Below the pieces are notes generated by a model. That model worked only from the letters and a program-made list of their open reading frames with translations, ran no database searches and was not told where the DNA came from. A program made the position numbers and the translations under genes. Below are positions 33,688 to 43,945 of a stretch of 49,852 nucleotides of DNA, in pieces (positions within the stretch are counted from its first letter, which is position 1; the number at the start of each line of letters is the position of its first letter). The DNA is from a virus (lineage: Duplodnaviria > Heunggongvirae > Uroviricota > Caudoviricetes): positions 1-49,852 of IMG/VR virus record IMGVR_UViG_2913167280_000010; one strand, written 5' to 3'.

Positions 33688-33762
<75 letters not shown>

Positions 33763-33765
33763 ATA

Positions 33766-33841
<76 letters not shown>

Positions 33842-36134: not shown

Positions 36135-36290
36135 TTACTCCTCAGATTCGTAAGCTGTGAAGACAGCGACCTCCGTCTGACCGGTTCGGATTCGTACCTC
36201 GCAGAGGTCTTTCCTCGTTACCAGTGCCGTCACTATGACGGTTAAACAGATGACGATCAGGGCGATTAACATCGCCTTTTGCTGCTTCAT
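36135..36290 (-). CDS. hok: Hok/Gef-family type I toxin (51 aa)
   Basis: MKQQKAMLIALIVICLTVIVTALVTRKDLCEVRIRTGQTEVAVFTAYESEE, the canonical Hok/Gef TM-plus-periplasmic pattern. Confidence 0.85.
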   Translation of the reverse strand: MKQQKAMLIALIVICLTVIVTALVTRKDLCEVRIRTGQTEVAVFTAYESEE

Positions 36291-36347
36291 AGCCTGCTTC
36301 TCCTTGACCTTTCGGTCCGTAAGAGGCAATCTATATGTGACGAGCAT
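36135..36347 (-). CDS. mok: Mok-like in-frame upstream extension of hok (70 codons)
   Basis: N-terminal extension MLVTYRLPLTDRKVKEKQA precedes the Hok sequence in frame, as in chromosomal mok/hok loci. Confidence 0.55.
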   Translation of the reverse strand: MLVTYRLPLTDRKVKEKQAMKQQKAMLIALIVICLTVIVTALVTRKDLCEVRIRTGQTEVAVFTAYESEE

Positions 36348-36390
36348 ATAGGGGCCTCACTTCGATTTATAGTCGGGTGGGGCTTTTCTC
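36300..36390 (+). ncRNA. Sok-like antisense RNA (approximate, predicted only from locus architecture)
   Basis: Antisense to the mok start/leader where Sok is encoded in hok/sok systems; boundaries not resolved. Confidence 0.2.
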
Positions 36391-36809
36391 TATCTGCCTT
36401 TGGTAGCATGCCCGAGGCAGATAGCCTCAAGCACCCGCAGCAATTCTACTTAACTCCCATAACCTCGCCAATATGAAATCAATCAGAAAGGTGATTCATA
36501 AGAACGATAACAAGACAATAAATTGCCATTACTGCCGCAACAGCCAGCGCACATTTCAGAACCAGCACGATAACCTCCCAGATTTGACGTACACGCGCAT
36601 GATTCAATATGTAGCAACCTATTTCTTGCTTCAATATAAAATCAGGTATTGTTGTATAACTATTTAACTAACTCCCTATCCCCACATCTCAGGCGCTCAA
36701 CGTCTGTGTACGGGGCGTTTTTTAATACCTTACCCCCAGCGGCGAATCGAATACACCACCAGCGCCACCGCCATTGCGATTCCTACCGTGGTGAATGCCT
36801 CAGGCCAGG

Positions 36810-42133: not shown

Positions 42134-42598
42134 ATGAGAAGAAAACGCGAAGAAATCGCATCGCCAGAAGCTACGCAGCGTCTACGCGGAATCTGGGATG
42201 CAAAAAAAAGAGAGCTCAAACTGACTCAGGAGCTTGCTGCCGAGCTAATGGGCTTTGAGACGCAATCTACGGTTAGCCACTATCTCAACGGAAAGGCTCC
42301 ACTTAACACTGATGCGGCATTAAAATTCGCAGTATTGCTAAGAGTTAAGCCTGAAGACTTGAGGCCTGATTTAGCTGATCTGATGAATTACGTACGTTCC
42401 TCTGGAACTTATGACGAAAGTTTCGAAGGCGAAGGGTGGCGGATGGTTAACAAGCAACAAGCTGATTTACTGGATCTTTTTGATATCCTCCCCGAATCAG
42501 AAAAAGCAAAACTAATCGAAAGGCTTAAAGGCCAGAATGAACTCTACAAAGAAGCGTTTGAAAATATGCTGGCAGCTCAGAAACGCATGAAGAAATAG
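42134..42598 (+). CDS. RacR/CI-like prophage repressor (XRE-type HTH)
   Basis: 154 aa; HTH LTQELAAELMGFETQSTVSHYLNG; divergent from the cro-like gene; own terminator. Confidence 0.7.
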   Translation: MRRKREEIASPEATQRLRGIWDAKKRELKLTQELAAELMGFETQSTVSHYLNGKAPLNTDAALKFAVLLRVKPEDLRPDLADLMNYVRSSGTYDESFEGEGWRMVNKQQADLLDLFDILPESEKAKLIERLKGQNELYKEAFENMLAAQKRMKK

Positions 42599-42834: not shown

Positions 42835-42969
42835 ATGGTGCATTACGAAGTAGTTCAGTATTTGATGGATTGTTGCGGTATCACTTACAACCAGGCTGTG
42901 CAGGCTCTACGCAGCAACGACTGGGATCTCTGGCAGGCAGAAGCCTCTATCCGCAACAACAAGATGTGA
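42835..42969 (+). CDS. Small protein (44 aa; YdaG-like position)
   Basis: ATG ORF MVHYEVVQYLMDCCGITYNQAVQALRSNDWDLWQAEASIRNNKM; first gene after the pL-like promoter. Confidence 0.45.
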   Translation: MVHYEVVQYLMDCCGITYNQAVQALRSNDWDLWQAEASIRNNKM

Positions 42970-42980
42970 GGGTTCCCAAA

Positions 42981-43133
42981 ATGCAAAAAATCGACCTCGG
43001 CAACAACGATTCCCTAGTGTGTGGCGTGTTCCCCAACCAGGATGGAACGTTCACCGCCATGACTTATACCAAAAGCAAGACATTCAAAACTGAAACGGGC
43101 GCACGTCGCTGGCTTGCCAGAAATACTTGCTAA
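42981..43133 (+). CDS. Small protein (50 aa; YdaF-like position)
   Basis: ATG inside track ORF 42870..43133 (MQKIDLGNNDS...). Confidence 0.45.
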   Translation: MQKIDLGNNDSLVCGVFPNQDGTFTAMTYTKSKTFKTETGARRWLARNTC

Positions 43134-43556
43134 TCCATTATTTGGATTAATTCAATATTCTCGCTGTAGGGGTATAGCCGAGGCCACCAAAGCCCGGAGG
43201 TGGTGAAATAAAACCGGGCACAACACGAAGGCGCACTTCCTATATTCATAAAGAGTCGGTCTTGTCTGTTAAATTTAAATGGTGGGAGTGCGCCTCCGGT
43301 TGTGAATAACAACACAGCTGTGTGTAGTCCTGGCGGCATCAGTTTTTTCTTGAAGTTCGACTGATGTCCGCCCTTTTTAAAGTGAATTTTGTGATGCGGT
43401 GAATGCGGCTAAGCGCACGCGGCACAGTTAAAAGTCATGTTAGTCCTTATTGGTTTGGGTGGGAAAGCCGACTGTAATTGTTAACTGGTTGCAGTCACCT
43501 GGAGGCACCAGGCACCGCATCAACAAAGTTCATTTGTAAAAATGGAGATAATTATG

Positions 43557-43775
43557 ATTGCACATCACTTCGGAACTGATGAAATACCACGTCAGTGTGT
43601 GACTCCTGGTGACTATGTTCTTCATGAAGGCCGGACATATATTGCCTCGGCAAACAATATTAAAAAGCGAAAACTTTATATTCGTAACCTGACCACAAAA
43701 ACATGCATTACTGACTGCATGATTAAAGTCTTCCTCGGTCGTGATGGTTTACCTGTAAAGGCGGAGTCATGGTGA
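43557..43775 (+). CDS. Kil-like small protein (72 aa)
   Basis: ATG with GGAGA RBS inside track ORF 43542..43775; size and position match Rac kilR. Confidence 0.45.
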
Positions 43776-43945
43776 TGACTAAGAAAATAAAATGTGCTTA
43801 CCACCTTTGCAATAAAGAAATTGAAGAAAGCAAAAGTATTAAAAGACCACTTCATTTCATGCGTGGAGTTATCCCAACGACGGAAATGAAAAAATATTGT
43901 AGTGAAAATTGTGCCGAAAAAGACCAGATGGCACACGAACTTTAA
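43775..43945 (+). CDS. Small zinc-ribbon protein (56 aa; YdaE-like)
   Basis: [18 protein letters not shown]...YCSENCAEKDQMAHEL with two Cys pairs; start overlaps the kil stop; coordinates reconciled to the ORF-track frame. Confidence 0.45.
   Translation: MTKKIKCAYHLCNKEIEESKSIKRPLHFMRGVIPTTEMKKYCSENCAEKDQMAHEL

Follow-up and report, generated by a model that had tools for sequence, protein, structure and literature searches.

Between the ydaF-like gene and kilR of a Rac-like prophage lies a segment of about 420 bp without an evident gene, at the place where, according to the initial annotation, the Rac gene order would put the superinfection-exclusion gene sieB. The question raised by this locus is whether the segment stands in for sieB and, if it does not, what it encodes. 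The window analysed here, i.e. the whole stretch of DNA, comprises 49,852 nucleotides of a virus of the class Caudoviricetes (IMG/VR record IMGVR_UViG_2913167280_000010, positions 1 to 49,852). The gene order of its Rac-like prophage is racR-like, ydaG-like, ydaF-like, the gap, kilR, ydaE-like, racC-like and recE, with the following landmarks:

42134-42598: racR-like repressor gene
42835-42969: ydaG-like gene, with a UBA-like domain
42981-43133: ydaF-like gene, ending with TAA at 43131-43133; DUF1391 match in the family scan (E 3e-28)
43554-43775, + strand: kilR, matching phrog_294 'Kil protein' (E 1.6e-36) and named kilR in matching genomes
44394-47066: recE

The product of kilR is an inhibitor of cell division and elongation, and kilR is the gene served by the leader described below. 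The list of open reading frames shows only short frames and no credible gene in positions 43134-43553, in agreement with the initial annotation; the largest is an antisense frame of 69 amino acids (43130-43339) with no match in Pfam or PHROG. PGAP-annotated genomes, one K-12 strain included, carry no annotated feature between ydaF and kilR, and an Rfam scan at gathering thresholds reported no family in 43134-43553. The segment itself is widespread: among 5426 complete genomes of Escherichia coli searched with megablast, 4436 have a partial or better match and 1754 a match with at least 80% coverage. The region upstream of kilR in K-12 and in many other E. coli genomes shares 96.7-98% identity with it.

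In the Rac prophage of K-12 the order is ydaF, sieB on the opposite strand, the same segment of about 400 bp, and kilR, and positions 43159-43556 of the window share 96.7% identity with K-12 (megablast). Because K-12 has both sieB and the segment, the latter is the normal upstream region of kilR and no substitute for sieB; the proposal that it fills the sieB slot is thus abandoned. The reported absence of sieB was confirmed, since a tblastn search of the window with K-12 SieB gave nothing significant (best E 6.3, elsewhere), and a sieB remnant or a relocated sieB was rejected on the same search. What is specific to the arrangement without sieB is confined to 24 bases and the last codons of ydaF, where the C-terminus reads ...RWLARNTC in the window versus ...RWLEKHTVS in K-12:

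43134-43157, no strand assigned: sieB-less junction; from about 43158 onwards the sequence is again homologous to K-12 Rac

Of the 5426 complete E. coli genomes, 355 have this junction, as does the induced phage vB_EcoS-683R6; in sister phages of the latter, vB_EcoS-666R9 among others, sieB is present. Lack of sieB is therefore a common module polymorphism and has no bearing on the cassette described here. All the repeats quoted in the initial annotation are present in the sequence, i.e. AATCCA-TTATT-TGGATT, CCGGAGG, CCTCCGG, GGCGCACT and AGTGCGCC, and they fare differently. The inverted repeat AATCCA-TTATT-TGGATT lies at 43132-43148, overlaps the stop codon of ydaF and is restricted to the sieB-less junction; with 6 bp it is at chance level, about 0.6 such repeats being expected per 420 bp by a rough estimate.

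The segment is very probably a Rac-type 'dicF locus', namely a non-coding cassette on the + strand which consists of the small RNA KilS followed by a folded leader of kilR. In all likelihood this cassette belongs to the repressor-side early operon racR - ydaG - ydaF - cassette - kilR - ydaE - racC - recE. Its features are, in order:

43160-43182, + strand: small hairpin CUCGCUGUAG-GGGU-AUAGCCGAG, present in the minimum-free-energy and centroid folds and conserved in K-12 Rac
43192-43219, + strand: small hairpin GCCCGG...CCGGGC, present in the fold and holding the CCGGAGG block (43194-43200)
43219-43304, + strand: long 20-bp hairpin with 5' arm 43219-43240 and 3' arm 43284-43304
43267-43275, + strand: extended -10-like element TGtTAAATT, located 7 nt before the mapped KilS 5' end
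43282-43378, + strand: KilS small RNA, ortholog of E. coli K-12 kilS (b4833)
43379-43553, + strand: structured multi-stem leader of kilR, about 175 nt, with an Rfam STnc100 match below threshold
43381-43401 with 43513-43534, + strand: closing stem P1 of the leader, 21 bp
43405-43420, + strand: leader stem P2, 5 bp
43470-43496, + strand: leader stem P4, 11 bp, with compensatory changes in six pairs
43498-43512, + strand: leader stem P5, CCUGG-AGGCA-CCAGG, with an invariant loop
43544-43547, + strand: Shine-Dalgarno sequence GGAG of kilR

The strongest of these features, the terminator hairpin with its U-run (43332-43378) and the leader (43379-43553), were absent from the initial annotation.

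The identity of the central RNA is given by the curated record of MG1655, in which the ncRNA kilS (b4833) is annotated between kilR and sieB. Positions 43282-43378 align to all 98 nt of K-12 kilS with five substitutions and a deletion of 1 nt, giving a length of 97 nt in the window, and in both genomes the 3' end lies 176 nt upstream of the ATG of kilR on the same strand as kilR. Full-length orthology, strand, distance to kilR, terminator and the seed GCUGUGUGUAGUC (43317-43329) are shared with the K-12 gene, from which the present copy differs by the changes just named and by its location in a prophage without sieB. For K-12, RIL-seq (Hfq) data led to the prediction of KilS, which a northern blot confirmed (PMC8175672; Bar et al. 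2021), its 5' end being approximated from RNA-seq coverage; it accumulates as RNA and is bound by Hfq in that strain (PMC8175672). The same report describes KilS as derived from the 5' UTR of kilR, states from published TSS data that it 'can be transcribed from an independent promoter', and names yncL as its RIL-seq partner (PMC8175672).

The terminator of KilS is a hairpin of the DicF type at 43332-43372, followed by U5 at 43374-43378. This hairpin and GCUGUGU are conserved in 10 variants, with three covarying pairs in the hairpin. A simple terminator scan did not flag it, as that scan allows loops of up to 8 nt and the loop of KilS is longer. The extended -10-like element at 43267-43275, the core of which (GTTAAATTT) is nearly invariant in 21 diverged variants, is a candidate promoter of KilS by sequence and position; a consensus promoter scan of the segment did not list it. 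The only promoter-like site on the + strand in that scan is a weak one at 43114-43141.

The conserved single-stranded seed of KilS, UGUGUGUAGU, is complementary to ACUAUACACA at positions -38 to -26 of the 5' UTR of yncL, for which the chance expectation is about 0.05 by a rough estimate. Computed in windows of 20 x 24 nt, the KilS-yncL duplex has an energy of -17.2 kcal/mol for the copy in the window versus -18.7 kcal/mol for K-12. Four of the five substitutions relative to K-12 cluster in a small 5' hairpin just 5' of the seed, and because of them the present KilS does not have the additional CAUUG-GCAAUG pairing with yncL seen for K-12. In unrestricted RNAduplex runs of the small RNAs against ftsZ and yncL the full-length duplexes were no better than shuffles.

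Folding energies compared with dinucleotide shuffles gave z = -4.07 for 43134-43380, -5.40 for KilS (43282-43378) and -3.61 for 43379-43570. Since folding of the - strand is likewise better than in shuffles (z = -3.84), energy alone cannot assign the strand. The hairpin at 43192-43219 reads GCCUG...CAGGC in variant L076 and CCCUGAAAAGUCAGGG at the same place in Qin-type copies, i.e. the hairpin is retained while its sequence changes. The long hairpin, the loop of which carries the nearly invariant GUUAAAUUU, has an 18-bp consensus stem across 21 variants (RNAalifold) with 97.9% of cells paired. Four of its pairs show compensatory changes, e.g. A-U to G-C and G-C to U-A, the pairing is lost when the partners are slid against each other, and the covariation score of 0.184 compares with 0.110 in shuffles, none of 500 of which reached it; as the sequences are related mosaics whose alignments also served to derive the structures, such shuffle controls overstate significance, here and for the leader. 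Of the complementary blocks proposed in the initial annotation, one pair thus stands: GGCGCACT (43230-43237) and AGTGCGCC (43287-43294) form the core of this covarying, conserved stem. The other pair falls, since CCTCCGG (43293-43299) pairs with ACGAAGG within the long stem and not with CCGGAGG, and CCGGAGG/CCTCCGG is no conserved pairing.

By analogy with the Qin prophage the long hairpin is a probable substrate of RNase III. The 190-nt DicF species of Qin has an RNase III-dependent 5' end (bioRxiv 10.1101/2023.04.14.536235); counting 190 nt back from the 3' end of DicF would place this cut, by arithmetic on the fragment length and not by statement of that paper, in the homolog of the 3' arm of the long hairpin.

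This comparison leads to the kinship of the locus with dicF. A permissive Rfam scan of the segment gave two adjacent matches on the + strand, DicF (RF00039) at 43319-43373 with 39.3 bits (E 2.7e-6; gathering score of 48 not reached) and STnc100 at 43375-43561 with 37.4 bits (E 8.4e-6; full model length; gathering score of 47 not reached). The same pair of matches occurs in K-12 Qin at the true dicF, with 76.7 bits for DicF and 34.4 bits for STnc100, and K-12 kilS itself scores 39.1 bits on the DicF model. Comparison of the gap with the ydfC-dicB spacer of K-12 shows a common terminator stem, GGCGG.AUCAG...CUG..CCGCCC-UUUUU, and about 175 shared nucleotides downstream of it, nearly identical at the ends and variable in the middle; the leader shares about 80% identity with the dicF-dicB spacer of Qin. 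Both loci have the same architecture, with a DUF1391 gene, a long putative RNase III hairpin, a small RNA with a GGCGG...CCGCCC-U5 terminator, the same leader and then a division-inhibitor gene. They differ in that Qin has about 110 additional nucleotides between hairpin and small RNA, and in that the downstream gene is here kil and not dicB. On sequence grounds the segment is the Rac counterpart of the ydfC-dicF-dicB spacer of Qin.

KilS differs from DicF in its 5' seed, that of DicF being UUUCUGGUGACGUUU, and its terminator loop is without ACUCCG, which in DicF pairs with the ribosome-binding site of ftsZ. Among the windowed duplexes with ftsZ, the best ones of KilS leave the ribosome-binding site uncovered; for DicF, the duplex ranked second (formed by its nt 25-44) spans positions -22 to 0. 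Because the curated score and the ftsZ-complementary sequence both fail, KilS is not filed as DicF and, judged by its sequence, is best described as a DicF paralog with a different seed. For DicF, the paralog in Qin, no internal promoter was found (bioRxiv 10.1101/2023.04.14.536235).

A scan of IMG/VR for the best-conserved hairpin of the leader, together with phage records, delivered 36 distinct loci with a DicF-type terminator. They have either the DicF seed class (UUUCUGGUGACGUUU) or the KilS seed class (..UGCUGUGUGUAGUC..) with one common terminator, and the unit of terminator plus leader stands before kil, dicB or other genes. The combinations observed include:

DicF with dicB: Qin; phage Tritos, in which the RNA is annotated as DicF
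DicF with kil: phage Evi
KilS with kil: Rac, the window, and an N-bearing Stx1c phage
KilS-like RNA without leader: phage GER2

In 14 variants of 43379-43556 the leader has a consensus of four helices with 97.4% of cells paired, and the part between P2 and P4 is variable. Nine pairs show compensatory changes, compared with 2.4 in shuffles, and none of 500 shuffles reached nine. G-U pairs are frequent (UG 13, UG 12 and GU 13 in P4; GU 11 in P1); read on the - strand they would become A-C mismatches, and the RNA is thereby assigned to the + strand. A wider IMG/VR set comprises 123 segments in which GUGAA precedes the leader hairpin by 72-110 nt, and in it the five positions beside GGUG/CACC covary, e.g. 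UA 26 and CG 17 at one, GC 36 and AU 20 at another. The paired fraction in this set is 0.692, the best of 1000 permutations being 0.621, and P1 covaries across 65 distinct IMG/VR stems. In the leader hairpin of the IMG/VR loci only the combinations U..A or G..C occur, though the search pattern allowed any base. The folded RNA suggested in the initial annotation is accordingly borne out by conserved helices with covariation, and the RNA consists of the known small RNA KilS and a leader akin to that of dicB and to STnc100. The spacer occurs without sieB in the 355 genomes and in vB_EcoS-683R6, as noted above, and its structure is conserved.

STnc100 (RF02076), with PasD and EcOnc27, comprises prophage RNAs of Salmonella and pathogenic E. 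coli. The features of the family, GGUGAAU, the closing stem surrounding it and the CACCNGGAGGCACCNGGCACC hairpin, are all present in the leader, and the hairpin CACC-NGGAGGCACCN-GGCACC is common to both. The leader differs from STnc100 by its much longer closing stem of 21 bp and by its fixed position, directly after the terminator of a small RNA and 33-38 nt before kil or dicB, whereas STnc100 proper lies e.g. downstream of stx2B. Throughout the kil/dicB subfamily, 33-38 nt separate the end of the element from the start codon. Of the 139 loci with the motif, about half have no ORF start within 200 nt downstream, so that the wider family is heterogeneous; among its members are the STnc100 copies described downstream of stx2B and, in the tRNA-ban operon of phage P7, a copy located 38 nt before terB.

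The closing stem P1 is of interest because of a published cut. The 3' end of a 72-nt DicF form of Qin is made by RNase III (PMC9438474). Arithmetic on fragment lengths, in which 19 nt are added to the 53-nt form of DicF and the end falls at ...AAAGUGAAUUUUGU, maps this 3' end into the middle of the 5' strand of P1, and the 5' strand around ...AAAGUGAAUUUUGU is identical in the window, where the position corresponds to about 43392. By analogy, placement of the RNase III cut in P1 fits a 21-bp duplex as substrate. Duplexes of at least 20 bp, nearly perfect and located between cistrons of early operons, are RNase III signals in the N leader of lambda and at the intercistronic sites of T7, where the cut sets the mRNA downstream free from the RNA upstream. 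The duplexes of the present locus resemble these in length and position; cleavage here is argued from the Qin paralog only.

From these observations the following course of expression may be proposed. Transcripts would enter from the racR-side promoter and normally be stopped at t_rac; it is reported that this Rho/NusG terminator, located inside racR, accounts for most of the silencing of kil, whose expression depends on read-through of transcripts from the racR promoter (PMC4150792). The segment was also considered as the site of the Rho-dependent silencer of kilR, and this was rejected because t_rac is located upstream of it, inside racR (PMC4150792). Transcripts that pass t_rac would fold into the 20-bp hairpin at 43219-43304 and, by homology to Qin, be cut there by RNase III. 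KilS would arise either from its own extended -10 promoter or from RNase III processing, and would end at the DicF-type intrinsic terminator, whose hairpin and U-tail could double as an Hfq-binding module; in Qin, DicF is made by termination together with RNase III and RNase E cuts. Complementarity and the published RIL-seq data suggest that KilS pairs in trans via the seed GCUGUGUGUAGUC, e.g. with the 5' UTR of yncL. The terminator of KilS would at the same time be a second barrier before the toxic kilR, and polymerases reading through it would transcribe the multi-stem leader of about 175 nt. The 21-bp closing stem of this leader, shown to be an RNase III site in the Qin paralog, would be the second such site here. 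Cleavage in P1 would then separate the KilS-containing RNA from a kilR mRNA starting about 30 nt before the start codon.

Four other readings of the segment or of its parts were weighed against this one. That the leader is a free-standing, trans-acting small RNA of the STnc100/PasD/EcOnc27 type, located upstream of kilR by chance, is unlikely. The leader does match STnc100, copies of which in Stx phages overlap the Hfq-bound small RNA EcOnc27 (PMC12711010), and the motif-bearing loci without a nearby downstream ORF start point in the same direction. The score, however, remains below the family threshold, the distance to the start codon is constant in the kil/dicB subfamily, and no terminator that would end the leader lies ahead of the gene; the leader stands directly after the KilS/DicF terminator and is thus reached only by read-through, and in Qin RNase III cuts it within the RNA of the operon. 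A free-standing RNA from the leader would be compatible with the main explanation if the processed fragment were stable. Highly improbable is the view that the segment has no RNA function and is a leftover at the DNA level, such as an old sieB promoter region or a recombination joint, the copies of which are merely recent. The region does border a mosaic junction; the start codon of K-12 sieB is 45 bp from the segment, so that the left end of the segment probably overlaps with the promoter of sieB on the - strand; identity exceeds 95% among most E. coli copies; and stable folding is seen for the - strand too (z = -3.84). Yet copies with 20-35% divergence keep the helices via compensatory changes and G-U changes specific to the + strand, the K-12 ortholog gives a detected, Hfq-bound RNA (PMC8175672), processing of the Qin paralog at the corresponding helices is known from experiment, and the promoter scan found no sigma-70-like promoter on the - strand of the segment.

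The nut-like site suggested in the initial annotation, here extended to a nut-like or put-like antitermination site for the entry of RNA polymerase into kilR and recE, has very little probability left. The position in the early-left operon with several hairpins would suit it, as would the KilS intrinsic terminator, which must be passed for kilR expression, and Qin-type and N-bearing relatives have a slightly boxB-like hairpin CCCUGAAAAG(U/C)CAGGG at the equivalent of 43192-43219. Inside 43134-43556, however, no boxA-like sequence was found (consensus CGCUCUUUA, up to one mismatch), and the hairpin at 43192-43219 has in the window a loop of 16 nt and no GNRA-like pentaloop; a boxB-type 5-bp stem with a GAAAA-type loop does not occur in the window copy of the segment. 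Between racR and kilR there is no N-like gene, only the ydaG-like and ydaF-like genes (ORF list, Pfam, PHROG). As for a put site, HK022, the paradigm phage for put, has no P5 motif CACCNGGAGGCACCNGGCAC near pL or pR with up to four mismatches, and in this comparison of sequence motifs the whole HK022 genome has one match at that level, in a tail gene. Moreover, the most conserved structure lies downstream of the terminator that would have to be overcome. Hardly credible at all is a small protein encoded by the 69-aa antisense ORF and replacing SieB. The frame is open in all Rac-type copies (63-69 codons), but of about nine nucleotide differences from K-12 most change an amino acid, the C-terminus varies with the junction, distant variants cut the frame to 22-52 unrelated residues or fuse another gene to it, and the ORF, for which the Pfam and PHROG searches gave no match, overlaps covarying RNA helices.

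The reading as a cassette of KilS and kilR leader is therefore retained, and the feature is an ordinary and already known one, namely the ortholog of an annotated and experimentally detected small RNA in a common prophage variant. What appears as an annotation gap, blank in PGAP and at the gathering thresholds of Rfam, holds a real small RNA gene and a structured leader, and about one complete E. coli genome in three has this cassette as the gate to a toxic inhibitor of cell division. The gain is a modest one and consists in the link among three separately named RNAs, KilS, DicF and STnc100, with no new kind of system. Testable predictions follow from the link, both for the silencing of kilR and for the biogenesis of KilS, which would involve an internal promoter as well as two RNase III sites. 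The explicit statement that KilS and DicF are paralogs sharing one shuffled cassette may be unpublished, as may be the membership of the kil/dicB leader in an STnc100 superfamily by structure, with a closing stem that coincides with a published RNase III site. The work of Faubladier and Bouche from 1994 and of Conter et al. from 1996 may already describe a dicF-like sequence of Rac. The KilS paper (PMC8175672) makes no mention of DicF, and the DicF paper makes none of Rac.

A broader reading is offered only tentatively. It holds that the leader belongs to a large, covariation-supported superfamily of phage RNAs, with more than 120 IMG/VR contigs and including STnc100 and PasD-like RNAs, and at the same time that KilS and DicF are paralogs on one exchangeable cassette. 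If the former is true, the core GGUGAAU...GGAGGCACC would have a specific function in cis beyond that of an RNase III site. The exchangeable cassette, if it exists as such, would combine an RNase III hairpin and a replaceable seed with a terminator and a leader common to all its versions. It would then be shuffled by lambdoid prophages before different division inhibitors, kil and dicB, and the targets of its small RNAs would evolve by replacement of the seed on a fixed scaffold for biogenesis.

The small RNA KilS and the structured leader of kilR that follows it are separable modules, judging from phage GER2 (L131), in which a KilS-class sRNA (positions 1546-1605) with the same seed and terminator is followed after 20 nt by an unrelated ORF, the leader being absent. 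The leader resembles the Rfam family STnc100, and its hairpin motif CACCNGGAGGCACCNGGCAC occurs two to three times within 250-700 bp in six IMG/VR contigs (L017, L030, L031, L033, L051 and L060), which suggests tandem copies of an STnc100-like element. In the Qin-like prophage of E. coli E30 (L003) the related dicB leader, which lies downstream of DicF, is broken (positions 2499-2973), and the order thereafter is a truncated dicB start, isrK together with C4 antisense RNA, and an intact dicB. Both isrK (69 bits) and the C4 antisense RNA (78 bits) fall within a gene annotated as a Rha-family regulator (2734-3588), and the arrangement resembles an insertion of an immunity-I-type cassette into the dicB leader.

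Matches of 79-84% to the E. coli kil/dicB leader were also found in Aeromonas phage AP1 (MT713136.1) and Actinobacillus phage vB_Apl-pPE4 (PP818812.1), whose hosts on record are non-enterobacterial; in the latter the matching stretch carries a Kil protein annotation. Contamination or chimeric assembly may be the cause of both matches.

Immediately 5' of the long stem that precedes KilS, the Qin-type and N-bearing relatives (L005, L020, L128 and other Qin-type loci) carry a CCCUGAAAAG(U/C)CAGGG hairpin, the GAAAAG loop of which is faintly reminiscent of boxB. The homologous position in the window, 43192-43219, is occupied by another hairpin instead, GCCCGG-16 nt-CCGGGC. Further upstream, the final six codons of ydaF differ between the window (...RWLARNTC, 43100-43133) and E. 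coli K-12 (...RWLEKHTVS, L002 1930-1970), a divergence that places the boundary of the sieB module within the 3' end of ydaF. Among the flanking proteins, the YdaG-like protein (44 aa; window 42835-42969) matches the UBA-like domain PF14555 with an E-value of 4e-5, barely above the cut-off, and the YdaE-like protein (window 43775-43945) matches the Rtr1/RPAP2 zinc-finger family PF04181 (E-value 5e-8).

Elsewhere in the window the following RNA genes were detected with Rfam at gathering level:

33691-33841, minus strand, two tRNA genes side by side
36288-36436, minus strand, sok antitoxin RNA (110 bits)
48118-48296, minus strand, RalA antitoxin sRNA (225 bits)

The presence of RalA, sok and the tRNA pair is consistent with a Rac-like prophage bearing extra morons.
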